This document shows positions 8,422 through 63,504 of a DNA stretch of 64,000 bases, piece by piece (positions within the stretch are counted from its first letter, which is position 1; the number at the start of each line of letters is the position of its first letter). Location: contig CP070651.1 in NCBI GenBank assembly GCA_020354625.1, positions 2,538,135 through 2,602,134 of the forward strand, in the 5' to 3' direction. The notes beneath the pieces are model-generated. The model was not told the origin of the DNA, searched no databases, and saw only the letters and a list, made by a program, of their open reading frames with translations. The DNA comes from Trueperaceae bacterium (GTDB taxonomy: Bacteria; Deinococcota; Deinococci; Deinococcales; Trueperaceae). A program made the position numbers and the translations under genes.

Positions 8422-8512
8422 AGGGTATGGTACCGCGAACGCCGGAAGGCGTCGAGGGGAGATGGAGACAGGGTGGTAGAGTCGAGAACATGCTATCAAC
8501 AAACAAAAAACT

Positions 8513-8549
8513 CACAAACAATAGTGTCGTGAAATATAGCACATATAAG
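8513..8549 (+). promoter_or_regulatory. Copy S1 of the recurrent AT-rich motif (CACAAACAATAGTGTCGTGAAATATAGCACATATAAG); candidate promoter/operator between divergent dnaE and the tRNA-Cys/tRNA-Val pair
   Basis: Sequence match to the family described in the findings. It ends in the -10-like hexamer TATAAG about 90 nt upstream of tRNA-Cys and has an A-rich tract upstream. Confidence 0.45.
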
Positions 8550-8638
8550 CCTTCCGCTCGCCCGTCAAGCCACACCGATCCCGATCCCCCGATTCCGTTG
8601 ACACTTCTTCGAGCCGCGTGATACCCTTTTTAGCGCCT

Positions 8639-8713
<75 letters not shown>

Positions 8714-8754
8714 ATCCCGATAGGGGACAGGTCGGACCCGATAGGGAGCACATA

Positions 8755-8828
8755 GGCGCGTAGCTCAGTGGGAGAGCGCTACATTGACACTGTAGAGGTC
8801 GGCAGTTCAATCCTGCCCGCGCCTACCA
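8755..8828 (+). tRNA. tRNA-Val (anticodon GAC)
   Basis: 74-nt cloverleaf. D-arm GCTCAGTGGGAGAGC, anticodon stem-loop CTACATTGACACTGTAG, T-loop AGTTCAATCCT, 3' ACCA. Confidence 0.88.
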
Positions 8829-10108: not shown

Positions 10109-11428
10109 TCAATAACCGTCTGTGAGCGTCTTCATGAAGGCGACGATGGCGGCTTCGGCTTCGGCGTCGAGCTGTAGGTTGCCGAGTGGCACGCCCTCGA
10201 GGATCTCCCTGTTGACGTTCCGGTCTACTTCAGGTGGCGGCCAGCCCTCTTCGGGGACGTCTCTGGTGTTGTAAAAGTGCACGACTTCCTCGAGGCTCTT
10301 GAAAACGCCGTTGTGCATGTAGGCCTTGGGGAAGCCTTTTCCGAAGCGCTGATCGACGTTTCTCACCGTGGGCACCTTGTGCTTGCCGTCGTTTTCAAAA
10401 GCCATGGCTGCCCACTCCGGTCTGGACCGTAGGAAGTCACCGAGGCCGAAGTCGACGAAACCTTCGCCATCAGGATTGATCGGGCTACCATCCTCCAAGA
10501 AGACTTCGTCCATGTCGTAGAAGGGGTTCTCGGGGTTTATCGGCACGCCGATGTTGTCGAAGGTGAAGTCGGTGAATAGGGGCGGTACCCCGCCAGGACC
10601 GGGCAGGTGGCTGATGTGGCAGGCCGAGCAGTACTCGCCGAACTCGATGAGCCCGTCGAACTCCTGGTCGGTCAAGATGCCGCCCGGATCCAGAACTGCC
10701 TTGTCCCCTTCAGCCAGGCCACAGTCCCCAGGGTCGTTACCGGCATCGAGGCAGGCGGCCCAGTACGCATCGAACTTGGAGCTAAAGGGGCTCACCTCGG
10801 CCGAGGCCTCGTAAGCGGCGATGGAGAGGCCGATGCTGTCGTACATTGTCAGCACGTCAGGGTAGGTGCAATCGAGCGAGCCGGGGCCCCACACCTCCTC
10901 GAACAGGTCGGCGTACGTGGATCCTTCTACAGCTTCACACACCGCCTGCACACTCGGCATGTTCTGCTCGACCGGGTTCAAGAAGGGTCCCAGCGCCTGG
11001 TCGGCGGCCGGGTTGCCGAGCCGCTCGCCCGTCGCCCGTCCGTCCCAGAAGTTGCCGCCGACAAACACTCCCTCGTCGCTATCGAAGTCGAACACAGGGC
11101 TAAAGGTCGCATACGCCGAGGACGGTGGCTTGCGGTTGCCGAAGCGCTGCGGGACTGCGCCCCGGTAGACGGCGTCGTGCACATTGACGCCGGCCACTGG
11201 ACCTGTCCAGCCGGCTTTGGGGGCGTGACAGGTGGCGCAAGAGATCCAAGGGGGATCCGAGATCTTGGCGAAAAAGAGCTCCTTGCCCAAAGATTCTAGA
11301 GGTGACAGTCCGGGATCATGGCTCACGACGGCGAGCGGTTCCTCCCGTAGACCTTCTTCCATGCGATTCGTGTTGCAGCTTGGGAGCAGGATCAACCAGA
11401 CGGCCAGCAGGTACGGTAACGCTCTCAT
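10109..11428 (-). CDS. Di-haem cytochrome c peroxidase (CCP/MauG family) lipoprotein
   Basis: Two CXXCH haem motifs (CATCH and CSACH). Lipoprotein signal MRALPYLLAVWLILLPSC. The track ORF extends to 11539, but the ATG at 11428 gives the signal peptide. Confidence 0.8.
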   Translation of the reverse strand: MRALPYLLAVWLILLPSCNTNRMEEGLREEPLAVVSHDPGLSPLESLGKELFFAKISDPPWISCATCHAPKAGWTGPVAGVNVHDAVYRGAVPQRFGNRKPPSSAYATFSPVFDFDSDEGVFVGGNFWDGRATGERLGNPAADQALGPFLNPVEQNMPSVQAVCEAVEGSTYADLFEEVWGPGSLDCTYPDVLTMYDSIGLSIAAYEASAEVSPFSSKFDAYWAACLDAGNDPGDCGLAEGDKAVLDPGGILTDQEFDGLIEFGEYCSACHISHLPGPGGVPPLFTDFTFDNIGVPINPENPFYDMDEVFLEDGSPINPDGEGFVDFGLGDFLRSRPEWAAMAFENDGKHKVPTVRNVDQRFGKGFPKAYMHNGVFKSLEEVVHFYNTRDVPEEGWPPPEVDRNVNREILEGVPLGNLQLDAEAEAAIVAFMKTLTDGY

Positions 11429-13404: not shown

Positions 13405-13514
13405 GGGTCATAACCTCCTTTACCGCAACCATGGAGACGGTGATGCGGCGCAGACTCCCTCTAGTGTACTGCGAAACAAAAAGATTTTCATGTACGTATG
13501 TAAGGCAAAAAAGA

Positions 13515-13551
13515 CACAATCAAAAGTATCGTGAAATAAAGCACAAATAGG
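13515..13551 (+). promoter_or_regulatory. Copy S2 of the recurrent AT-rich motif (CACAATCAAAAGTATCGTGAAATAAAGCACAAATAGG), about 110-150 nt upstream of the yebC start on the opposite strand
   Basis: Near-identical to S4 (19 of 21 in the core). See findings. Confidence 0.45.
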
Positions 13552-13930: not shown

Positions 13931-14050
13931 AAGTTACCTCCATGCAATTCGTCTTTCTTATTCCTTAGACTACCGCAAGCGTGGGAATCCTACTCGTGGC
14001 GACGCGACCTGGTTAACAAGTACGCACTCAAATAATGTATAGTGATCGTA

Positions 14051-15004
14051 GTGAGTCGCGCCACCAACAACCCGTACCAGACACTAGGCGTCCCTGTGGA
14101 TGCCAGCGCTGAGGAGATCAAAAGCGCCTACCGGCAACTCGCCCTCAAGTATCATCCCGACCGGAACCGAGGCGATAAGGACGCGGAGGATAAGTTTAAG
14201 GAGATATCTGAGGCCTACGCAACCCTGCGAGATCCGGAGAGTCGCCGCGCCTACGACACCTACGGCCAGGCAGGCGACTATCGTAGACCTGATTTTAGCC
14301 AGGTCGATTGGCAGACGATCTTTAGCGAAGCGAACATCGATATTCAATGGGATCCCCGCCAGGGAGCGCCCCGTACGGGTAATGCCGTGTTCGACGTGCT
14401 CTTCGGTGCGTTTACCGGACTCATGCGCAACTCCGGGCTACTCCCTGGTGAGGACCGGCAGCTAACGTTTGTGCTCCCTTTGCGAAAGGCCAGACCGGGT
14501 GACCAGCACCGGGTACGCGTGCCGGGTCCGAGTGTTTGCCCGACGTGCCTCGGTAGCGGGATGACGTCAGCGGGCGCTCCCTGTCCAACCTGTTATGGAC
14601 GCCGTGTCCTGGCAGGGGGGTCTGACGTCATATTCACGCTTCCAGAAAGCTTTCACAGCGGCCAGAAGTTACGATTGCGTGGTCTAGGAGGGCCGGGGAG
14701 TCCTCCAGGAGATGCGATTATTACCATTCAGCTCATTCTTCCCACTGAGTCTAAGCTCGTCGGAAATGATCTCCACAGCACGTTGTACCTCACCCCGCTC
14801 GAGGCCAGCCAAGGACTCAGAACCGTTCATCACAGCACGTCTTTGGCGATTCCAAAAGGCACCAAAGATGGAGACATTATCCATCAATCGAATGGTCCTA
14901 TGGGGGGAGACCATATCGTTACCGTGCGGCTCAGTGTCTGGCGCGGTATCTGGCGGCGTGCCACCAACCTGCTACAGAATCTCACAGAATCTACCGAGGA
15001 GTGA
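14051..15004 (+). CDS. DnaJ-class co-chaperone (J domain plus a single CxxC pair; DnaJ2-like)
   Basis: J domain with the HPD motif (YQTLGV...KYHPDRN) and one CPTC-X10-CPTC unit. The GTG at 14051 lies 8 nt downstream of TGTATAGT, a leaderless-type arrangement. The track start at 14042 overlaps the -10. Confidence 0.75.
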
Positions 15005-15007
15005 TGC

Positions 15008-15415
15008 ATGACAGAGAAAACGGGCAGGGATGACGGAAAAACGAAAGCTCCGAACAAAGATAAGCCTCTCTACGTCATCAGCGTTGCCGCAGAGCTCGTC
15101 GACATGCACCCACAGACTCTGAGGCTCTATGAGCGCAAAGGCCTCATCGAGCCGAGCCGGAGCGCCGGCAAGACGCGTCTTTACTCCCAGCGGGATATCG
15201 AACAGCTACAAGAGATCAGGCGATTGACCCAAGAACTCGGTATCAACCTCGCCGGTGTCGAGGAGATCATCAAACTGAGGAGAAAGCTCGACAGCCTGCA
15301 AAACAACCTCGAGGGACGGATCAAAGGTCTACAGCAAGAGCTGCAACAGCGCATGCAAGCCTACCGTGCTTTGCCCTCGAGCATCGAACTCCCAGAGGAC
15401 GATGAAAATGGCTGA
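15008..15415 (+). CDS. hspR: MerR-family heat-shock repressor HspR
   Basis: N-terminal MerR HTH ([50 protein letters not shown]) with a coiled-coil C-terminus. It lies immediately downstream of the dnaJ-like gene, the usual dnaJ-hspR order. Confidence 0.8.
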
Positions 15416-15489: not shown

Positions 15490-18400
15490 GTGCACCTTAC
15501 CACCATCAGCCTTCAAGGGTTCAAGAGCTTTGCGGAGCGGACCACCGTGGAGTTCCCTCGAGGCATTACTGCCATCATTGGGCCGAATGGCTCGGGGAAG
15601 TCGAACCTAATCGAAGCCCTCAAGTGGGTGACCAGCAGCGGTCGAGCACGCGAGTACCGGGCTACGGATCGAACAGAACTCATCTTTCACGGGGCGACCA
15701 CCAAACGTAGTCTCGGCTTTACCGAAGTCGAAATCGAACTCGCCACCGAGGGAACTCCGCTCAAGATCCGGCGCTCGCTGTACCGCGATGGAACGACCAA
15801 GCTCAAACTCAACGGTCAAAACAGCAGACAACTCGACGTACAAGAGCGGCTTGCGGGTAGTGGGCTCAGCCGTGGCAGTCTCGCGATCATCGGTCAGGGA
15901 GAGGTGAGTGAGGTCTTGCTCGCCGATCCGGAAAAACTTCTTCAGTATCTCGCAGAGGCGGCCAACATTACTACGCTTAGGGACCGGCGCGAGACGAGCA
16001 AGGCCCGACTCGAAAACGCCCAACTCAACCTCGAACGCCTTGGCGACCTACTCATTGAGCGTAGAGAACATCTCGACAACCTCGAGCAGGAGTCTCGTAG
16101 GGCACTCTGGCATCAAGAACTGAGTGAACGTGCACATGCGCTCAGGTTCACCCTCGCAAGGCTCCGCTTCGAATCGCTTTCGGGTGACGTCTCCAGACTG
16201 CACCAGAGCCTCGAGGTACTCGAGCAAGAGATCGCTCGGGGAGATAGCAGCCTCTCCAAGCTCCGAACAGGGCTTCAAGCAGCGCGTGGAGAGGTGCGTG
16301 AGGCGCAGGAGTCCTATCGCGCCAGTTACGCTCGGGCGGAAGCGAAACGAGGAGATGTGCGCGTATCCAGAGAGCGGCGGGCCCGCATCGAGGACCGACA
16401 CAACAACCTGGAGACGCAACTTGTTGAAGCCCGACGTGAACGTACCGAGCTCGGCGATCCAAAACCTCCAACCGCGCCAGCAGGAAATCTTGAGGAGCTC
16501 GAGCGAGACGAACGTAATGCCTTTGGGGACCTAATCGTTGTTCAGAAGGAGAACGAACGCCTTGCAGCAGCCGTTCGATCGGAACGAGATGAGCTCCAGG
16601 GCCTACGGGCGAGGGCCACAACGGAGGAGCTCGCCCATGCGAGGTACGAGGCCACGCGGCAGCAGCTTGAGCAACAGTTACGACTGCTAGACGATCAGCC
16701 AGGACCGGATCCTGTTCAAGAGAGCACACTCGAGCAACTCAAAGACCACGTCAACGAACTCGAACAAGCGCATGAAGAAGCGCGACAAGCCCTAGAGGCG
16801 TCACGCACCGAGCTCGGCAGCGCTCAAAATAAACACGCCCAGGCGAACGCGGAGGCGGACGCTGCGAAGACGGCTGTAGAGCGTGCCAGACGTGCTCTAC
16901 AGGCACGCCGCGGGTATCAACAAGGCCCCCGCATCGCGCTTGAGAGCGGGCTCGAGGGGATCCACGGGTCCGTGGCCGATCTCATCGACGTACCCGAAAT
17001 GTATCGTCAAGCTATCGCGAGTGCCCTCGGACGTAGAGCGCAATATGTGGTCGTGGACACGGCCGAGACGGGCAAACAGGTGATCGACTACACCCGTCGC
17101 CACACGGCTTGGGTAACCGTTCTCCCTCTCGATCTCCTAGACCCAAAAATGAGCCGGCCACCGAGCGGCCTGCTCGAGGCGCCGGGCGTTATAGGGCTCG
17201 CCAGCTCGGTGGTCAGAACGAAAGCGCGCTATCGTTCGGTGGCAGACCAGCTTCTCAATAACGTGCTCCTCGTCGAAACCCTCGATGTGGCCGTCGATCT
17301 CGCACGGAGCTACCGGCGTAGACCGAGGCTTATCACCTTAGACGGGGATACGCTCGAGCCGAGTGGGGCGATGAGTGGAGGGCGTGCGCCCCTCACGGTC
17401 AACGTGTTAGGGGCTGCACAAGAACTCGAGCGCACGGAGCAAAACGCCGAAGCGTTCTCGCGCACCGCGGAAAAGACGGAGAAGAGGCTTGTCGACGCGA
17501 CCACCGCCTACGAACGCGCGCGAGAACGGGAACGGGACCTAGCCGCCACCGTTACGGTGACGCAACGGCGGCTCGGCAGAGTTCGTGAGGAACGTGCTGC
17601 CAGTAAGCGACTGGCCGACCAACAGGAAACCCAACGAGAACACATTCAGTCGTCTCTCGCGACGCTCACGCCGCCTCAACGCACCGTCAGCGAGCGCGAG
17701 CTCGATCAAGCGGGGGCGGATGTGGAGGCCAACCAGAGTCGACTCGAGCGAGCAGCTGCACAAACACAATACCTCCAGCAGAGACATCAACAAGCACAAC
17801 AGGCGCACCTCATTTACAAGGAACAGGTCAAGGGCTATCAGCAAGCCTATCACCAACACCAAAAAGATCTGCAACGCCTCGCCATTATAGAGAGGCAGAT
17901 CACAACGCTCAAGACAACCTTGGAGGAGAACCTAACCCAGCTCGAGATGGCGCGACGGGATGAAGAGGACGCAGAAAAGGCTCTTCCTGATGACCTCGAC
18001 CAGAAAGAGGTGCAAGCCAAGCAGGCAGAAGAGAAGGCTCTCGGCCTCGAAAATGCACTCAGCGAACTTACAGTAGAACAGGCGAGGCGTGGCCAGGAAG
18101 CGGAGCGCACTCGCCTAAGCCTCGCGCGCCGTGAGACGTCTCTCGAGGTGGCCACTGAGGAGTTGGAGCAGTACCCTCCAGGACTCGAGTTACAACCGGG
18201 GACCGAAAGGGGTATTCGGCAACAGCTTCAGGAGGTGAGCGAAGAGTTGGAGGCGGTCGGTCCCGTCAATCACCTCGCTACACGGGCCTACCAAGAACAG
18301 AAGGATCAAGTCGAGACGCTCGAGCGCGAGAGCGGAGAGGCACTGCAAGCCACCCGTGATCTCGAAGAGGTCCTCGAACGTCTCGATGGTGAGATTACCA

Positions 18401-18879
18401 GTCGGCTCTCCAGAGCGCTCAAAGCCCTCAGGCGCAGTTTTCAGCGGTATGCAGAGGAGCTATTCGACGGACAGGTTACAGCCGGTATCGAGGTGGAAAC
18501 CGAACAGGGTAGGCCGGTGGGGATGCGTATCAAACTTCAACCTCCAGGCAAACGCACACCGGACCTTAGGCTCCTCTCGGTTGGAGAGCGCACCATGGGT
18601 GCGTTGGCGTTCCTATTCGCCTTGACGGCTGATGGAGGGCTCCCCATCGCGGTGTTGGACGAGGTTGACGCACCGCTTGACGAGATCAACATCCGCCGGT
18701 ACTGCAAATTTCTCAAGCGACTCGCCGAAGACGGTACCCAGTTCATCCTCATCACCCATCAGAAGGCCACACTCGAGGTGGCGGACGTGCTATGGGGGGT
18801 TACTACCGATGGAGGGGCGAGCCGGTTGTTCAGTATTCGTAAAGATGAAACCGCTGAGCGCCAGGTGGTGCTCGGCTAA
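15490..18879 (+). CDS. smc: Chromosome segregation protein SMC
   Basis: 1129 aa. Walker A (GPNGSGKSN), long coiled coils with a hinge, and C-terminal signature/Walker B (LSVGERTMGALAFLFAL...LDEVDAPLD). Confidence 0.95.
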   Translation: MHLTTISLQGFKSFAERTTVEFPRGITAIIGPNGSGKSNLIEALKWVTSSGRAREYRATDRTELIFHGATTKRSLGFTEVEIELATEGTPLKIRRSLYRDGTTKLKLNGQNSRQLDVQERLAGSGLSRGSLAIIGQGEVSEVLLADPEKLLQYLAEAANITTLRDRRETSKARLENAQLNLERLGDLLIERREHLDNLEQESRRALWHQELSERAHALRFTLARLRFESLSGDVSRLHQSLEVLEQEIARGDSSLSKLRTGLQAARGEVREAQESYRASYARAEAKRGDVRVSRERRARIEDRHNNLETQLVEARRERTELGDPKPPTAPAGNLEELERDERNAFGDLIVVQKENERLAAAVRSERDELQGLRARATTEELAHARYEATRQQLEQQLRLLDDQPGPDPVQESTLEQLKDHVNELEQAHEEARQALEASRTELGSAQNKHAQANAEADAAKTAVERARRALQARRGYQQGPRIALESGLEGIHGSVADLIDVPEMYRQAIASALGRRAQYVVVDTAETGKQVIDYTRRHTAWVTVLPLDLLDPKMSRPPSGLLEAPGVIGLASSVVRTKARYRSVADQLLNNVLLVETLDVAVDLARSYRRRPRLITLDGDTLEPSGAMSGGRAPLTVNVLGAAQELERTEQNAEAFSRTAEKTEKRLVDATTAYERARERERDLAATVTVTQRRLGRVREERAASKRLADQQETQREHIQSSLATLTPPQRTVSERELDQAGADVEANQSRLERAAAQTQYLQQRHQQAQQAHLIYKEQVKGYQQAYHQHQKDLQRLAIIERQITTLKTTLEENLTQLEMARRDEEDAEKALPDDLDQKEVQAKQAEEKALGLENALSELTVEQARRGQEAERTRLSLARRETSLEVATEELEQYPPGLELQPGTERGIRQQLQEVSEELEAVGPVNHLATRAYQEQKDQVETLERESGEALQATRDLEEVLERLDGEITSRLSRALKALRRSFQRYAEELFDGQVTAGIEVETEQGRPVGMRIKLQPPGKRTPDLRLLSVGERTMGALAFLFALTADGGLPIAVLDEVDAPLDEINIRRYCKFLKRLAEDGTQFILITHQKATLEVADVLWGVTTDGGASRLFSIRKDETAERQVVLG

Positions 18880-18883
18880 CCCG

Positions 18884-19600
18884 GTGACAACCAGGAACCA
18901 GCTACCGCACTTCCGTTCGGTGACCTATCGGAGCGTCGGGTCTACCCAGGATCTTATGCGTCGAAAACTCGCGTCGGGCGAGGATGTACACGGCCTGGTG
19001 ATCCGGGCACACGTCCAGACACAGGGGCGTGGCAGGCAGGGGAAGGTCTGGAGTAGTCCCGCTGGTGGCAGTTACCAGACGATCGGTCTGCGAGACTCTG
19101 GGACGTCCCGACTCCGCATGCCTCTCGTCGGCCTCGCTATCGGGGCAGGTCTCGCCACCACGTTTAAGCAAGCTGGTGCGCAAGTGGGGTTGAAGTGGCC
19201 AAACGATCTTTACTATAAGGGCAAGAAGATCGGAGGGATTCTCACGGAATACCTGCAGCAGCACCTCCTTGTCGGCATCGGGCTCAACGTGAGCAACCGC
19301 CCTCCGGAAGGAGGGGCAAGTCTTACGGGGTGGGAGCTCGGTGAGGTCGGAGAGATCGTACTCGAAGGGTATCGGTTGGGGCTCGGTATGTTCTACTCCG
19401 GCGAAGATATTACGGCGCTATGGAGCGAATACGACGTGCTTGCGGGGCAGCCGGTGGTGATACGGTACGATTCCGGGGTGATACGAGGAACCGCCCGGGG
19501 TATCTGCAATGACGGGCGCCTCAAGGTCGAGGGAGCCGGTGGCGAGTACTACGCGGTGGGTGTTGGTAGGCTCCTCAGTTATAACCTTAAAGTTGGCTGA
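18884..19600 (+). CDS. birA: Biotin--[acetyl-CoA-carboxylase] ligase (BirA catalytic domain type)
   Basis: BPL motifs (VGSTQD...QTQGRGRQGKVWSSPAGG...KWPNDLYYKGKKIGGIL). GTG start 5 nt after the smc stop. The track ORF 18632.. is an upstream out-of-frame extension overlapping smc. Confidence 0.8.
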   Translation: MTTRNQLPHFRSVTYRSVGSTQDLMRRKLASGEDVHGLVIRAHVQTQGRGRQGKVWSSPAGGSYQTIGLRDSGTSRLRMPLVGLAIGAGLATTFKQAGAQVGLKWPNDLYYKGKKIGGILTEYLQQHLLVGIGLNVSNRPPEGGASLTGWELGEVGEIVLEGYRLGLGMFYSGEDITALWSEYDVLAGQPVVIRYDSGVIRGTARGICNDGRLKVEGAGGEYYAVGVGRLLSYNLKVG

Positions 19601-19610
19601 GGCCAGGCTA

Positions 19611-20609
19611 TTACCAGTCATCGATATCCTCACCGATCGCCATCTCGTCGATCTTTGCATAGATACGGGTTGTCTGAATATCTGAGTGGCGTAGGTGGGC
19701 AGCCACGCGGCCCAGATCCTTGACCTGGGCGTAGTAGCGAGAGCCAGCACCATGTCTCAGCCCATGCACACCTTTTACCTCATAAGCGATGCCCGCCTGG
19801 GCGCAGAGTTCCCGGAAACGCTTGCGGGCGTGCCCCTGACCCCAGGGGAGGACAAAAGAGCGTACACGCCTCTTGCCGTAGCGCTTGTCGGGCAAAGAGC
19901 GAAGCTCGCGCAGGGACGCCTGTAAGCGGCCCGACATCCGCACCCTGCCCGCCTTGCCGCCCTTGCCGCTCCGAACCAAGATGAGCTGATTGTTCCAGTC
20001 GACATCCTCCCAGCAGAGTTCGGTCATCTCGCCGATGCGAAGGCCCGCGTGGGCGCCGAGGAGGACCATGACACACAACGCAGGCTCGGCGAGCTCGAGC
20101 CGCCTCTCAACCTCGCGCTGGCTGTAGGGTTTGCGTTTTTCCCAGGCCGGCGTGGGATCTTTGGCGACGGAGACGTTTTCAAACGGCTTGGCGTTCGTTA
20201 CGCCGGCCCAACGTAGCGCCTTATAGAAAGCGCGAGCGGCAGCGAGTTTCACCTGCAGGGTGGCGGGCTCTGCCGGTTTACCACTCAGTGCCAATGGCGT
20301 CGCCTCGAGACTACGGATGTAGAGCACCCCGGCATCACGAGAGGGTCTGAGCAAGTTTTCGTGTTGCCAGGCCTCGAGCAGATCGAGGACTCCTCGCCGG
20401 TAGGCGCGTAGGGTGTGGTGACTGGCGCGTGCTCCCTTGGCTCCATGGAGAAAGAGGTAGGCTTTTGTCAACCCCCAGAGCTGTTCGACGTCGCGATCGC
20501 GAACCGCGGTGGCAGAAAGACGCCTGAGATCTTCGCTCGAAAGGTTGGCCCAGCTCTCGGCTTGGCTCAAGGGGGTTGAAGTGAAGCGCTCGAGCGTCTG
20601 GCTAGACAT
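19611..20609 (-). CDS. Tyrosine-type site-specific recombinase/integrase (XerC/XerD-like phage integrase family)
   Basis: Catalytic residues in context (…GLRIGEMTEL…; HGLRHGAGSRYY…LRHSDIQTTRIYAKID) plus an N-terminal SAM-like domain. Confidence 0.85.
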   Translation of the reverse strand: MSSQTLERFTSTPLSQAESWANLSSEDLRRLSATAVRDRDVEQLWGLTKAYLFLHGAKGARASHHTLRAYRRGVLDLLEAWQHENLLRPSRDAGVLYIRSLEATPLALSGKPAEPATLQVKLAAARAFYKALRWAGVTNAKPFENVSVAKDPTPAWEKRKPYSQREVERRLELAEPALCVMVLLGAHAGLRIGEMTELCWEDVDWNNQLILVRSGKGGKAGRVRMSGRLQASLRELRSLPDKRYGKRRVRSFVLPWGQGHARKRFRELCAQAGIAYEVKGVHGLRHGAGSRYYAQVKDLGRVAAHLRHSDIQTTRIYAKIDEMAIGEDIDDW

Positions 20610-20854
20610 AAGGTGCCTCGAGGGGTAAATAGATGCTCATGACAAGAGCTTACCAAAAGTTTGATAAGGCCACTTATCGTATTTTTCTCATTGAAAAGTC
20701 CTTCTGGCTGTGTGCTATCGACCGTTGATCGTAAGGGCAACGGCTTTCGCCCACAATTTCATATTTTTGTCTCGTCACTACCAACAGGTTCTATTTTTCA
20801 AGGTAGTTTACCCTTCAAACGATCTCGGAGGCCCCTTAACGGCCATCTCAGAGC

Positions 20855-20880
20855 GTCGCTATTTTTCACGCCGTCCTAGA
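20855..20880 (-). promoter_or_regulatory. Degenerate copy S6 of the recurrent motif (GGCGTGAAAAATAGCGACGCTCTGAG on the minus strand), about 250 nt upstream of the integrase start
   Basis: Shares GTGAAA-AT-A-GCGAC with the S0-S5 family. Lies in an AT-rich non-coding stretch. Confidence 0.3.
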
Positions 20881-21240
20881 CAGTGTTTATAAAGCCCTTC
20901 ACCGTGATTCGTGGCGTTTGTGATTTACCGACAAGGTTTCGGCCCTACTTTGGCACTCGACACGATGTTCAAAGACAACGAGGTTGGATCACACGGGCGC
21001 CGAGCCTACCTGATGCGAACGCCTGCGGATCAGACCGGAGAGCGTCCTGCGGTCGGTTTTTGCGAGTGCGTAGTGGGATGCTGCACAAGAGTTGCGTACC
21101 TGCAGGTTTTCGATGAAGGTGGTGGATCGGTCTGTTTGTAAAATGTCGACGAGTGTTGGCTCTTCTTTGGCGCTCAACCCTTCTTTGGCGCTCGGCGTTG
21201 TGCCCAGGGGTCCCGATACGAGTGATTGTAGTGCACAGTT

Positions 21241-21281
21241 GAATGATATAAGTGATTTCTTTCACGATACTATTTCACGTG
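21241..21281 (-). promoter_or_regulatory. Copy S3 of the recurrent motif with an extra half-site (CACGTGAAATAGTATCGTGAAAGAAATCACTTATATCATTC on the minus strand)
   Basis: Contains a perfect GTGA-N6-TCAC core and a -10-like TTATAT/TATCAT. Lies in the AT-rich integrase-adjacent region. Confidence 0.4.
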
Positions 21282-21333
21282 AGATTTTTATTTGATGGAT
21301 TTGATACACTTCATTTCTCAGGACTTACCTATG

Positions 21334-21810
21334 ACACCGACCATCCAACTCATCGCCACCGACATCGACCAGACGTTGCTAGATCATAAACAGCGACTAC
21401 CGCATAAAAACAAGCTTGCGTTGCAAACTGCCCATACGCTCGGCGTTCGGCTTGTACTGGCCAGCATACGCAGGCGTGACACGTGTCTACTGGTTGCAGA
21501 CGAGCTCGCTACCCCCTGCTACCTCATCAGCCAAGGTGGAGCAGTAGTCTACCACCCCGACGGCTCTAAACTCCATGAATGTCTCATCCCCATCAAACAC
21601 GCTCGGTCGTTGGCGACCTTTGCTGACTACGCTCGGTACTGGCTCTCGGGGACGCAGAAGCGGACAAGGGTATGTTGCAATGCGCAGGCATCGGAGTAGC
21701 CGTGGGAAACGCCCGCACAGAGGTCAAAGAGGTTGCCGATTGGATCGCGCCAACAGCGCAGGACGCTGGTGTAGCGAGCGCCGTACGTCGTTTCGTTTTA
21801 AATGGCAGGC
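21334..21810 (+). pseudogene. Cof-type HAD-IIB hydrolase pseudogene (internal deletion plus frameshift)
   Basis: The N-terminal ~100 aa match HAD motif I/II (IQLIATDIDQTLLD...). About 21640 the frame shifts. The C-terminal ~55 aa match HAD motif IV (ALGDAEADKGMLQCAGIGVAVGNA...VKEVADWIAPTAQDAGVA). The middle ~110 aa cap/core region is absent. Confidence 0.6.
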
Positions 21811-21847
21811 TCTGATCTTCGACTACGCTGCTTGGGCGTGAACCGCC

Positions 21848-22060
21848 GTGGCGTTCAATCTTGCTATATCTGAGGGTGTCCTGCACGCCATCGAGAGCTT
21901 CGGAGTGAAACGGTGTATGTTCGAGAGCAACGTTCCGGTAGATAAAGTCTCGCTCTCCTATGCGGTGTTGTGGAATACCTTTAAAAAGATGGTGGCCGAC
22001 TTCGATGAAGAAAAGACGGGGCTGTTCTACGGAACCGCTGCGCGCGTGTACCGTCTATGA
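21848..22060 (+). pseudogene. C-terminal fragment (~70 aa) of an amidohydrolase-2 (PF04909-like) family protein
   Basis: Sequence ...CMFESNVPVDKVSLSYAVLWNTFKKMVADFDEEKTGLFYGTAARVYRL resembles the C-terminus of metal-dependent amidohydrolases. The N-terminal ~220 aa are missing. Confidence 0.45.
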
Positions 22061-22221
22061 GTCGATATGCGTCGACGCGGTTGCCACGGCCTCCTGCGGC
22101 TCCGACCGCACCGACCATAGACCCCCGTTACCGGCTCCAAAAAACGGCGAGCTCGGCACTATGAAACATCGTATTGACGCTTTTTGAACTGTGCTAGTAC
22201 CCTGCATCGTAGGAGGCCTAT

Positions 22222-22587
22222 GTGAAGCGTCTAGGTTGGATGTTAACTTCGTGTTTGTTTGTTGTACTCCTTGGAGCATGCGGCCCTGCCGCAACCGTAG
22301 AGCGGAACGTCTTGCCCACGCTCGTCGCCATCACCGTACCCTCATCGATGGATGACCAGGTAGTGCTGCAGGGTCGTTACTTGGGTGATGGCAGCGCCGG
22401 TCAAGCGAATAATAGTTATGTCATCATCGGCGCCGACATTTCCGGGAAAGGTGGCCTCAGAGTCAGGCCAGAAAACTGGTCGGCAACCCGCATCGAGTTT
22501 CTTGCCCCCGAAGGCGCCGGTTCGGGTTTTGTCTTTGTGGTCGTGGACGGTGTAAGGAGCAACGGTCTTCCCGCCAGCCTGCCCTAG
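22222..22587 (+). CDS. Hypothetical lipoprotein (possible IPT/TIG-like beta domain)
   Basis: Signal plus lipobox (MKRLGWMLTSCLFVVLLGAC). No catalytic motif. Confidence 0.5.
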   Translation: MKRLGWMLTSCLFVVLLGACGPAATVERNVLPTLVAITVPSSMDDQVVLQGRYLGDGSAGQANNSYVIIGADISGKGGLRVRPENWSATRIEFLAPEGAGSGFVFVVVDGVRSNGLPASLP

Positions 22588-22605
22588 AAACACTCGTGCT
22601 CTTTT

Positions 22606-22633
22606 GAGGCTGCCACGGCAGCCTCTTTTTTTT
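22606..22633 (+). terminator. Rho-independent terminator (GAGGCTGCC-ACG-GCAGCCTC + TTTTTTTT)
   Basis: 9-bp GC stem followed by a run of 8 T, right after the lipoprotein gene. Confidence 0.75.
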
Positions 22634-22678
22634 GCCTTCTTTTGCACTATGCCTCTGTAAGGAGGTACACTCAACCGT

Positions 22679-22756
22679 TATGATTGCCAGCAGCCACTCC
22701 CCTTTGCGCCACCGCATCACCAGGCGGCCACACTTACACGCGACGGGTACACCTTG
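22679..22756 (+). CDS. Putative 25-aa upstream/leader ORF translationally coupled to aspS ([25 protein letters not shown])
   Basis: Strong AAGGAGG ribosome-binding site with a 13-nt spacer. Its stop TGA overlaps the aspS TTG start (TTGA). aspS itself has no obvious SD. Confidence 0.3.
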
Positions 22757-24529
22757 AAGCGCAGCCACCGGTGCGGGTCGATCGGAAACGAACATGTCGA
22801 CACCACCGTCACGCTCCAGGGTTGGGTAAACCGCCGTCGCGATCTCGGTGGGTTGATCTTTATCGATTTGCGCGACCGTGATGGTATCATTCAAGTCGTT
22901 TTCGAACCCGAACGCTCCGAAGCCTTTAAGGTTGCGCAATCGCTTCGCAGCGAGTACGTGATCACGATCCGAGGCGTGGTGCGCCCTCGCCCCAAAAACC
23001 AACGAACCGATCGTATCCAGAGTGGCCACGTAGAAGTTCTAGCCGATACCATCGATATCTTAGCCTCAGCCGATACCCCTCCGTTTCTGATCGATGGCAG
23101 CATCGATGCAGGAGAGGTCAGCGAAGACTTGCGCCTCAGGCACCGCTATCTCGACCTTAGAAGATCCGAAGCAGCCCAACCGATCGTACTTCGCCACAAG
23201 CTTCAGAAAGCGATCTGGGACTATCTCGACCGAGAAGGGTTCATCCAGGTAGAGACACCCCTGCTAACGTTATCGACGCCAGAAGGGGCGAGAGACTACG
23301 TGGTGCCGTCACGGCATAACCCCGGTGCTTTCTACGCCTTACCGCAATCCCCACAGCTATTCAAACAGATGTTGATGATGGCGGGTTTCGACCGCTACTT
23401 CCAGATCGCTCGCTGCTTCCGTGATGAAGACTTGCGCGCCGACCGGCAGCCCGACTTCACCCAGCTCGATATGGAGATGGCTTTTGTCGATCAAGATGAC
23501 GTGCTCTCTCTCAACGAAGGCTTGCTTCGCTATGTAGTAAGCGAGGTCAGAGACCGAGAGGTAACGACGCCGTTTCCCCGCATCCCTTACCGTGAAGCGC
23601 TCGATCGATTTGGGAGTGATAAACCCGACCTTCGATTCGGCTTCGAACTCTGCGACCTCTCCCCTCTTTTCTCCGAGACCGAGTTCCGGGCGTTTCAAGA
23701 GGTGCTGGCGACAGGTGGTGCCATCAAGGGGCTTGTGGTGGCAGCGCCGGAGGCCGAACGCGTTAGTCGAAAGGTTCTCGGGTTGCTCGATGATCACGCC
23801 AAACATCACGGGGCGCGCGGCCTAGCCTGGATACGTAGAACCACGGACGGTTTCGGGGGGCCGATTGCGAAGTTCTTGAAAGCGAGTGAGATTGAAGCGC
23901 TAACAGAACACTGCCCACACCCCGGCGACGTGATGCTGCTGGTGGCGGATCAGTGGTCCTCTGCATGCACGATTTTAGGTGCCGTGCGGTTGAAACTCAT
24001 CGAACTCCTCGAGCTCGAAGCCGACCCCGAGACCTTGGCGTTCGCTTGGATCGTGGACTTTCCCCTCCTGGAGTACGACGAAGAGAAGAACGCCTTCACC
24101 TATATGCACCACCCTTTTACCAGGCCACGAGATGAGGATCTCGACCGGCTCGAAACAGATCCTGGCTCGGTTCGAGCTTGGGCCTACGACCTGGTTCTTA
24201 ACGGCCACGAGATCGGAGGAGGGTCTTTGCGCATCCATCGACTCGATACCCAATTGCAGATGTTCGCCGCGCTCGGCTTCAGCCCCGAAGAAGCACGGCG
24301 CCGTTTCGGCTTTTTTCTCGATGCACTACGCTATGGAGCCCCCCCTCACGGTGGGATAGCCTGGGGGCTGGACCGCTTGATCATGCTCTTAAGCAAGGCA
24401 GAAAGTTTACGAGATGTCATCGCGTTTCCGAAAAACCAACGTGGACAGGATCCGCTTACCGGGGCCCCGGCATTACTCGATGAAGCCCAACTCCAAGAGT
24501 TGGGGTTGCGGATTGTGAACGAGCAATGA
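22754..24529 (+). CDS. aspS: Aspartyl-tRNA synthetase, bacterial type
   Basis: 591 aa. N-terminal OB fold ([26 protein letters not shown]), class II motifs and the GAD insertion domain. [15 protein letters not shown] at the C-terminus. Confidence 0.9.
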
Positions 24530-25332
24530 TCCCTCTTGTCGTTTGCGATCTCGATGGCACACTCGTTGGGAGCAGCGGACAAGTATCGGAATGCATCTGG
24601 CAAACGGTCGGCACGCTTCGAGCAGCAGGGATTCGTGTGGCTCTGGCCACCGGTAGACCGAACCAGGGTCTTTGCCATAAAGTCGCCCTGCAACTCGGAG
24701 CGAACCACCCTCACATCTTTCAGAGCGGAGCACTGATCGCCTATCCCGGGGGCGAGACCACGCAGGTCACCGCGCTCAAAGAGTCGGTTACGAAGACGCT
24801 GGTCGGCCGGGCGCGAGAGCTCGGTCTCGTACTGGAACTCTACACCCCGAACGCCCTCTTTATCGAGCGAAAGACGCCGCTCGGCAACGCTCACGCAAAG
24901 CTGCTCGGTGTCAAAGCGATCGTACGCGACCTCTTCGAAGTTGCCCAGAATGAACCGGTCATACGGGCACAGTGGATCGTTGCCCCCTCTCAACTCGAAC
25001 AGATCGAAGACCTGGCACCAAGAGAGGTGCAATACAGCACAGCGACTTCGCCGGCCGTACCCGAGGCCAAGTTCGTCAGCGTGACCAAAGCAGGTATCTC
25101 AAAGGGGAGCGCATTAAAGACGTTAGCCGATACCTTGAAAGTAGATCTACAAAACCTCATCGTTATCGGCGACAGTAGTGGCGATGAACCGATGCTGGAG
25201 CTCGCTGGCCATCCGTTCGTAATGGCTAATGCCGAACCGCACCTCCATAACCGTTACAAGGTCGTCGGCGACGTGGATGCGTGTGGCGCAGTCGAAGCGC
25301 TCGAGCAGGCGCTGGTGTTACAACCTCGCTGA
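24526..25332 (+). CDS. Cof-type HAD-IIB family hydrolase
   Basis: Motif I DLDGTL, motif III K, motif [11 protein letters not shown]. Start overlaps the aspS stop (ATGA). Confidence 0.8.
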
Positions 25333-29146: not shown

Positions 29147-29183
29147 CAATTATGTGTTTTATTTCACGATACCATTGTTCGTG
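29147..29183 (-). promoter_or_regulatory. Copy S4 of the recurrent motif (CACGAACAATGGTATCGTGAAATAAAACACATAATTG on the minus strand); likely smpB promoter
   Basis: The motif 3' end is CATAAT, 7 nt upstream of the smpB TTG. An A/T-rich tract lies upstream. Confidence 0.5.
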
Positions 29184-29219
29184 ATTATATTGCCGTATAG
29201 ATGTTTACCGCTCCAATAC

Positions 29220-35578: not shown

Positions 35579-35620
35579 AGTATAGTATTAGTGGATTATT
35601 TCACGATATTTTAGTTTGTG
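35579..35620 (-). promoter_or_regulatory. Copy S5 of the recurrent motif (CACAAACTAAAATATCGTGAAATAATCCACTAATACTATACT on the minus strand), just downstream of the ligA stop
   Basis: Same spacing as S1-S4. The -10-like TATACT points antisense to the NYN gene. Confidence 0.4.
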
Positions 35621-35624
35621 CATT

Positions 35625-37790
<2,166 letters not shown>

Positions 37791-38970: not shown

Positions 38971-39334
<364 letters not shown>

Positions 39335-63427: not shown

Positions 63428-63504
63428 CGGGGTGTAGCGCAGCCTGGTAGCGCACTTGACTGGGGGTCAAGTGGTCGCTGGTTCAAATCCAGTCACCCCG
63501 ACCA
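63428..63504 (+). tRNA. tRNA-Pro (anticodon GGG)
   Basis: 77-nt cloverleaf. Acceptor CGGGGTG/CACCCCG, anticodon loop CTGGGGG, T-loop GGTTCAAATCC, 3' ACCA. Confidence 0.85.

Follow-up and report, generated by a model that had tools for sequence, protein, structure and literature searches.

A tyrosine recombinase of Trueperaceae with a dif-like palindrome in its own promoter: a candidate single-recombinase Xer module

The Locus

The DNA considered here is a stretch of 64,000 nucleotides from a bacterium of the Trueperaceae (GenBank assembly GCA_020354625.1, contig CP070651.1, positions 2,538,135 to 2,602,134), in the following called the window and numbered from its first letter. The subject is a gene for a simple tyrosine recombinase and a short dif-like palindrome in the promoter of this gene, which together appear to be a native module of the family and probably a Xer/dif-type system for the resolution of chromosome dimers. 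The recombinase gene follows the genes dnaJ-hspR-smc-birA and is separated by AT-rich DNA and the remains of two genes from a conserved block beginning with a lipoprotein gene. A first-pass annotation made from the sequence alone had taken the region 19611–22200 to be the decayed remnant of an integrated element next to smc-birA, with the recombinase as its integrase. The protein calls at the locus were all borne out by Pfam and NCBIfam profile searches. The features are, from left to right:

14042–15004: dnaJ-like gene, first in the local gene order
15008–15415: hspR, downstream of the dnaJ-like gene
15490–18879: smc
ending at 19600: birA
19611–20609, minus strand: simple tyrosine recombinase, 332 residues, PF02899 and PF00589; candidate single Xer-type recombinase
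20610–20652, minus strand: recombinase leader (37 nt, with a 12-codon upstream open reading frame and the Shine-Dalgarno sequence GAGG) and −10-like box (TAAGCT at 20647–20652)
20661–20680, no strand assigned: palindromic core of a dif-like site, TTGATAA-GGCCAC-TTATCGT; the T-tract beside it extends to 20687
20691–21330, no strand assigned: AT-rich non-coding filler, lineage-specific, 49% guanine plus cytosine (GC), no Pfam or Rfam match
21162–21193, plus strand: CTTCTTTGGCGCTC in two exact copies, 18 bp apart
21247–21289, plus strand: conserved intergenic motif (with TGTGN-N6-TCACG) that occurs five times in the window; this copy precedes the start of the Cof gene by ~45 nt
21331–21624, plus strand: Cof-type HAD pseudogene, N-terminal part; the open reading frame continues out of frame to 21699
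21627–21815, plus strand: Cof-type HAD pseudogene, C-terminal part, in a different frame, with motif IV (GDAEAD)
21848–22060, plus strand: C-terminal tail of an Amidohydro_2 protein (Pfam positions 228–289 of 289)
22222–22587, plus strand: conserved lipoprotein gene, the right-hand anchor of a variable slot
right of the lipoprotein gene: aspS, an intact cof (24526–25332) and asnS

The Recombinase and Its Conservation

The recombinase gene is real, as the first-pass annotation had proposed. Its catalytic residues R191, K219, H282, R285, H308, and Y317 are complete and are invariant in 120 homologues except for H308, which is Q in seven of them. An AlphaFold2 (AF2) model calculated with an alignment (predicted local distance difference test, pLDDT, 87.7) has two domains, a core-binding and a catalytic one, and its best fold matches in the PDB are XerA, IntI4, and XerH. 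The protein scores far below the NCBIfam cut-offs for the equivalogs XerC (77.8 bits vs. 335) and XerD (53.4 vs. 330), for XerS (45 vs. 267), and for integron integrases (TIGR02249, 60.9 vs. 265; a second model, 35 vs. 435), and it has therefore to be regarded as a separate family. This family comprises 210 clusters at 50% identity (E ≤ 1e-30), with one member from Deinobacterium chartae.

The more than 100 orthologues returned by a protein search are 55–67% identical and belong without exception to Trueperaceae or Deinococcales. Of 21 related genome loci anchored on birA, 11 have an orthologue with 57–65% identity on the opposite strand, 0.8–9 kb after dnaJ-hspR-smc-birA. In the same loci BirA is 37–48% and SMC 41–48% identical to the window protein, which means that the recombinase is more conserved than either. 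In the closest relatives (recombinase 66–67% identical) the gene order is that of the window. The window's BirA has its best matches in metagenome-assembled genomes of Trueperaceae. The syntenic loci are L009–L011, L013–L019, L021, L082, L083, L106, L108, L111, L112, L119, L121, L125, L126, and L129. On the other side of the gene, orthologues of the lipoprotein (54–58% identical) follow the recombinase after 0.15–6 kb in L005, L011, L113, L125, and L129.

Because the recombinase is conserved in sequence and in place, it is not the integrase of a recent insertion; the idea that it belongs to an island fails since relatives carry the intact gene at the same locus, where it has changed less than its housekeeping neighbours. 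By these comparisons this simple tyrosine recombinase is inherited vertically on the chromosome of the Trueperaceae and is not island cargo; it is almost certainly a native core gene with its own site.

Two groups of other recombinases deserve mention. Paralogues with 52–55% identity (P0112–P0118; L128, 10001–11392) carry an N-terminal Sigma70_r4 helix-turn-helix, and the seven homologues with Gln in place of His308 are presumably these seven proteins. One of them, P0116, is surrounded by many transposase and toxin-antitoxin genes, and the palindrome described below is absent there. In L005, from a Trueperaceae genome of low GC content, the gap between birA and the lipoprotein gene is occupied by another tyrosine recombinase (10121–11194, 357 residues, 31% identical) in the opposite orientation; no obvious palindrome of the same type was noticed there.

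A dif-like Site in the Recombinase Promoter

The regions upstream of the recombinase gene in the relatives have one short element in common and nothing else: the palindrome AAAAACCTGATAA-CTCGTC-TTATCAG. The sequence tnAAAAACCTGATAA CTCGTC TTATCAG is invariant in 27 distinct lineages. Written as arm, centre, and arm, the site of the relatives is ACCTGATAA-CTCGTC-TTATCAGGT, and it thus has the inverted arms and, with 6 bp, a centre within the 6–11 bp that characterize a core site. In 27 relatives a TAnnnT box begins 7 nt after the palindrome and the ATG follows 6–8 nt after the box. With the start codon so close to the box, the mRNA appears to be leaderless; the promoter is overlapped by the palindrome.

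The linkage of site and gene is strict. A scan of a metagenome collection with the exact 25-mer found 22 loci, and the recombinase gene was directly downstream in 20 of the 20 that could be evaluated; the palindrome never stood alone in these 20 and never occurred twice in any of the 22. The linkage holds also in all genome loci. The site is present once in the 64 kb of the window, and once in each locus of 10–20 kb, and the homologous palindrome once on the whole megaplasmid MP1 of Deinococcus radiodurans (see below).

In the window a diverged copy of the site is found at 20661–20680, in the place of the relatives' invariant palindrome, and reads AAAAATACGATAA-GTGGCC-TTATCAA in the sense of the recombinase gene. 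No other exact GATAA-N6-TTATC is present in the 64 kb. Of 29 positions, 20 agree with the family consensus, the best chance match being 19 of 29. Searches of the window for a second copy and for att-like direct repeats gave only chance-level matches, the best with 16–17 of 27 positions, as elsewhere in the window. The arms are kept in the window and in L129, both of which have other centres (GTGGCC and GTAACC, respectively). The window also keeps the −10 box but has ~36 extra nt, and the real start is 37 nt further on, behind GAGG. At the position of the relatives' ATG there is an upstream open reading frame of 12 codons, which is out of frame.

A terminator was also considered for the palindrome and was rejected: the hairpin with its T-run is on the strand opposite to the recombinase, no gene reads into it, and the loop is invariant.

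Homologues on Deinococcus Plasmids

Full-length homologues with 39–44% identity are encoded on 66 Deinococcus plasmid records. Here, too, palindromes are found 4–53 nt upstream of the gene, with arms of 8–10 bp and a spacer of 6 bp, and they are lineage-specific. Examples are CCATAGATAA-GGTGTG-TTATCTATGG, GTTGCGACAA-CTGCTC-TTATCGCAAC, CCCCGGACAA-GTCTTG-TTATCCGGGG, and TCTTATCTAA-GGTAAC-TTAGGTAAGA. Both arms vary together from lineage to lineage, whereas the 6-bp spacing and the position are kept, which argues that the palindrome is the recombinase's own core site and not the operator of a common host regulator.

On the megaplasmid MP1 of D. radiodurans the homologue is DR_B0104, which is among the six candidate Xer-like recombinases listed in PMC9764985. 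A single copy of the palindrome GTGATAA-TTCAAG-TTATAC is located 35 nt upstream of the gene (NC_000958.1, position 124343; L133, 3843–3861). This palindrome can be regarded as a candidate site of resolution, and the organism is a model species.

GC Skew on Both Sides of the Site

The skew was determined, without the recombinase gene, for 14 non-redundant loci in which the site is flanked by 3 kb or more on either side. In 13 of them the GC skew was positive to the left of the site and negative to the right (sign test, p = 0.002). When the effect of gene strand was removed, the replication term of the skew at third codon positions was +0.028 for the left side and −0.039 for the right side. In four loci the maximum of the cumulative skew was 10–305 nt from the site, and in the window the global maximum was at 22559, 1.9 kb from the site. 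The counts of G-rich octamers were 1121:557 to the left of the site and 508:871 to the right of it. Such a change of sign points to converging replication forks and thus to a terminus. The octamer GGGNAGGG was tried as a specific FtsK-orienting polar sequence (KOPS) and was dismissed, its switch in polarity (26:13 vs. 8:22) being no stronger than that of other G-rich octamers.

The Variable Slot and Its Pseudogenes

Between the site and the conserved block lipoprotein-(hisS)-aspS-cof-asnS there is a slot of variable content, which measures 1.5 kb in the window. In L129 it is reduced to 148 bp, with the compact order birA, recombinase, lipoprotein, hisS, aspS, cof, asnS. In L082 and L083 the slot contains mgtE and genes for an HD hydrolase and an FAD oxidoreductase, and in L130 transporter and amidohydrolase genes. 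In L131 (1–9862) it is occupied by a defence island of more than 10 kb, which starts 95 nt from the dif-like site and encodes DUF3644, a reverse transcriptase, TIR, type I restriction (HsdM/HsdS/Mrr), toxin-antitoxin, AbiEi, and Fic proteins. None of these inserts is bounded by a second site, either in the window or, within 10 kb, in the relatives' loci. Other mobility genes were not found beside the recombinase, and repeat searches revealed no cassette-like structure, an attC model not having been run.

The left part of the window's slot was described in the first-pass annotation as ~700 bp of non-coding, AT-rich DNA with ~45% GC against ~65% overall. Indeed, 20610–21330 contains no genes: there is no open reading frame with a Pfam match and no Rfam match, Rfam at a permissive threshold gave nothing in 20500–22300, and the nine small open reading frames of the non-coding stretches had no match in Pfam. 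The figures have to be revised to 48.1% for this stretch and 59.0% for the window. Since it is nevertheless the 720-bp stretch with the lowest GC content (lowest of 1055 windows), the contrast is real, though smaller than was stated. The evidence on composition is mixed: the filler has 48% GC, but the GC content at third codon positions (GC3) of the gene fragments (0.57–0.65) is close to that of native genes (0.62–0.67). The filler proper (20691–21330) has no similarity to anything in the relatives' loci. A consensus promoter scan gave no match, and the terminator-like sites found were weak. The 14-bp repeat CTTCTTTGGCGCTC is present in two exact copies (21162–21175 and 21180–21193) at a period of 18 bp with a 4-nt spacer, and thus is not strictly tandem as had been claimed; it is not called by Tandem Repeats Finder (TRF), and a copy with 12 of 14 positions is at 20945.

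A recurrent motif had been noted twice in this stretch, of which one copy (21247–21289) was found and the second was not. The motif, TATATGTGnTTTATTTCACGATACTATTGTTTGTGAnTTTTTTG, is ~45 bp long, intergenic, and present in the window at 8505–8550 (−), 13507–13549 (−), 21247–21289 (+), 29151–29190 (+), and 35588–35626 (+). A further copy is located near 1280 (−) in L005 at the orthologous place, beside the neighbour of the dnaJ-like gene, and because of this the motif is considered a regulatory site rather than a mobile repeat. Its first part, TGTGN-N6-TCACG, resembles a binding site of the CRP/FNR type. The parS-like sequence TTTCACGTGA in the copy at 21260 was taken as a coincidence, as it is absent from the other copies.

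The Cof gene downstream was correctly recognized as a pseudogene with an internal deletion and a frameshift. Its fragments correspond to positions 1–91 and 218–254 of the 255 of Hydrolase_3. Compared with relatives of 258–262 residues, the N-terminal part covers residues 2–99 (43–48% identity) and the C-terminal part residues 205–259 (68–80% identity), from which it follows that ~105 codons are missing rather than the ~110 given before. The halves join near 21625–21635 and are read in different frames, and 21331–21815 lacks the continuous domain, with cap and motifs I–IV in a single frame, of an intact Cof-type HAD-IIB phosphatase. The parent of the fragment has few relatives, among which one is from Roseiflexaceae; the fragment itself recurs with 100% identity in a Trueperaceae metagenome-assembled genome at NCBI. 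As had been reported, an intact Cof paralogue is located between aspS and asnS (24526–25332); at only 32% identity the fragment cannot be a recent duplicate of it. The amidohydrolase piece (21848–22060) is indeed a C-terminal tail without the full TIM-barrel of Amidohydro_2, and its relatives (59–79% identical) match over this tail only. By tblastx and tblastn, homologues of the two fragments were not found in the relatives' loci, nor was any trace of the relatives' slot genes (mgtE, HD, and others) found in the slot of the window. No direct repeat of at least 15 bp brackets the region and the nearest tRNA gene is 8.8 kb away, in agreement with the annotation, which had seen neither a tRNA gene nor an attachment-site repeat at its flanks.

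The observation made by the first-pass annotation is thus largely right; its island reading is acceptable for the cargo, which is decayed and lineage-specific and occupies a variable slot, but where the recombinase is concerned it is mostly wrong. This slot is best read as a variable, terminus-proximal region, the content of which in the window consists of genes destroyed by deletions.

Some further observations concern the neighbourhood. The gene hisS is found between the lipoprotein gene and aspS in L005, L011, L082, L083, L113, L125, and L129 and is missing from 22588–22753 and from the whole 64-kb window, a further rearrangement beside the slot. In a short-read (Logan) assembly of SRR14739666, which contains the organism at 99.9% identity, the contigs end at 21242 and restart near 22570, thus flanking the pseudogene segment; these breaks could be due to repeats or to the slot being polymorphic among strains. 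Elsewhere in the window there are genes for class A RNase P RNA (38975–39333, 295 bits), for tRNA-Cys and tRNA-Val (8639–8828), and for tRNA-Pro (63428–63504), all of them ordinary.

A Module for Dimer Resolution?

The reading that we prefer, with a probability of about 0.58, is that recombinase and site are a single-recombinase Xer/dif-type module acting in dimer resolution. The module would consist of the recombinase and a dif-like core site in its own promoter with inverted arms of 7–9 bp (...CTGATAA / TTATCAG...) around a 6-bp centre. Strands would be exchanged across the centre by recombinase subunits sitting on the two arms, and by analogy with XerS/difSL and XerH/difH this would resolve chromosome dimers at the replication terminus. 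Occupancy of the site could at the same time repress the recombinase promoter. The content of the slot in the window (the AT-rich filler, the Cof gene minus ~105 codons, and the amidohydrolase tail) would be the product of deletions and not of the excision of an element.

It should be noted, however, that several points weigh against this reading. The Trueperaceae data on skew and copy number are from the 64-kb window and from single loci (10–20 kb for the copy number) rather than from whole chromosomes, and the skew loci are not independent because the left flank is syntenic in most of them. The cumulative skew of the window, taken by itself, does not peak at the site but has a plateau between 20.7 and 29 kb; the polarity of the G-rich words is not sustained over the first 12 kb, and the aminoacyl-tRNA synthetase genes on the right point away from the site. 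With 9 of 29 positions off the consensus the site of the window may be weakened. The site on MP1 is 23 kb from the GC-skew maximum of the plasmid, a result that says little or speaks mildly against the reading. The scores of the recombinase with the XerC and XerD models, given above, also count here, and the label single-recombinase is drawn from the data on these loci.

The most serious alternative, which we consider unlikely, is that the module is conserved and chromosomal but that the palindrome serves mainly as an autoregulatory operator and the recombinase has a role other than dimer resolution; it could, for example, capture or excise the DNA of the slot or integrate plasmids with related modules. 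The overlap of the site with the promoter, the −10 box being 7 nt downstream, is what would be expected of an operator, and the adjoining slot is hypervariable up to the defence island in L131. Paralogues on plasmids and in transposase-rich DNA, and the distance of the MP1 site from the skew maximum, likewise fit a different role. Against this alternative speaks that within 10 kb the inserts are flanked by neither a second nor a hybrid site, that the slot genes are in mixed orientations, and that attC-like repeats were not seen. And a mere docking site would not be expected to coincide with a change in the sign of the skew.

Distinctly less probable is that the pseudogene segment is an element of the type of integrative mobile elements exploiting Xer (IMEX), which integrated at the dif-like site via the host recombinase and lost the second site by decay. 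The insert in the window starts within ~10 nt of the T-tract of the site, and the differing inserts of relatives start at the same point (e.g., 95 nt from the site in L131), both as expected of such elements. But a second site is absent from the window and from every insert-bearing relative, and the recombinase-proximal site has both arms intact in every relative. In viral contigs, 22 matches to the arms were found, all of them without the CTCGTC centre and without a recombinase, so that they have to be ascribed to chance.

That 19.6–22.2 kb is a decayed mobile element with 19611–20609 as its own integrase is hardly credible: although the gene adjoins AT-rich DNA and pseudogenes, the Cof parent has few relatives with one from Roseiflexaceae, and the short-read assembly breaks on both sides of the pseudogene segment, the recombinase is intact, keeps its place throughout the family, and has diverged less than BirA or SMC, there are no tRNA genes, attachment repeats, or other mobility genes, and the GC3 of the fragments is native-like.

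Returning to the resolution module, a broader proposition can be put forward tentatively, at somewhat less than even odds: the Trueperaceae, and on their plasmids (perhaps also on their chromosomes) Deinococcus species, would resolve replicon dimers by a hitherto undescribed single Xer-like recombinase acting on a non-canonical dif in the promoter of its own, mostly leaderless gene, by which recombination would be coupled to autoregulation. If this is true, the missing dif/Xer system of the Deinococcota would be supplied and the slot at the terminus would be marked as a landing zone for defence islands. Chromosome dimer resolution is uncharacterized in this phylum, and the module offers candidate sites and enzymes, including DR_B0104. 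A degraded island with two pseudogenes is ordinary; a recombinase-site module found throughout a family is of more use. The locus also teaches that an integrase gene beside pseudogenes is not sufficient for calling an island and that a housekeeping recombinase can be masked by an automatic label like "phage integrase" or "site-specific integrase".

Comparison with Known Systems

Our search of the literature turned up no account of a dif or Xer system in either Trueperaceae or Deinococcus. In a 2026 survey a canonical dif could not be identified in D. radiodurans (PMC13342612), and a study of FtsK from this organism relied on XerCD and dif from Escherichia coli (PMC9764985). A review (PMC5357621) describes a dif adjoining the gene as a hallmark of single-recombinase Xer systems and notes that on large plasmids, too, the recombinase is encoded beside its site.

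XerS/difSL of streptococci and lactococci is likewise a single-recombinase module with dif beside the gene, the activity of the Trueperaceae module being predicted from its sequence. XerS has weak sequence similarity to the Trueperaceae recombinase, and difSL has a centre of 11 bp and unequal arms, whereas the Trueperaceae site has a centre of 6 bp and near-symmetric arms. Similar in architecture are XerH/difH of Helicobacter and Campylobacter and the archaeal XerA/dif, with a single recombinase, a palindromic dif with a 6-bp centre, and the gene often near the site. By sequence and by fold, XerA and XerH rank among the best matches, yet the identity is only ~20% and they belong to other phyla; moreover, the Trueperaceae recombinase has an N-terminal extension of ~50 residues, and its site is inside the promoter of a mostly leaderless gene.

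With XerCD/dif of E. coli, Bacillus subtilis, and Frankia the module has in common the core of arm, 6 bp, and arm, the inner ATAA-N6-TTAT of published dif sequences, and probably the location at a shift in skew. It differs in having one recombinase instead of two, which scores far below the XerC and XerD cut-offs, and in its unrelated outer arms. XerL/dif of Legionellales is, similarly, based on a lineage-specific single recombinase where a canonical Xer/dif was not identifiable (PMC9765430); its dif was revealed by an integrating element that mimics dif, whereas no such element was found here in viral contigs or in the relatives' loci.

Integrons resemble the locus in that the recombinase gene is transcribed away from an adjacent site, attI, beyond which the genes are variable, and IntI4 is a good fold match. 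However, the cut-offs of the integron-integrase models are missed (61 bits vs. 265 and 35 vs. 435), and the slot genes are in mixed orientation, with no cassette structure seen. Multimer-resolution modules of plasmids, finally, have their counterpart in the Deinococcus plasmids of 8–716 kb with the palindrome directly upstream of the homologue; from these the copy in the window differs in being chromosomal and fixed in position across the family.

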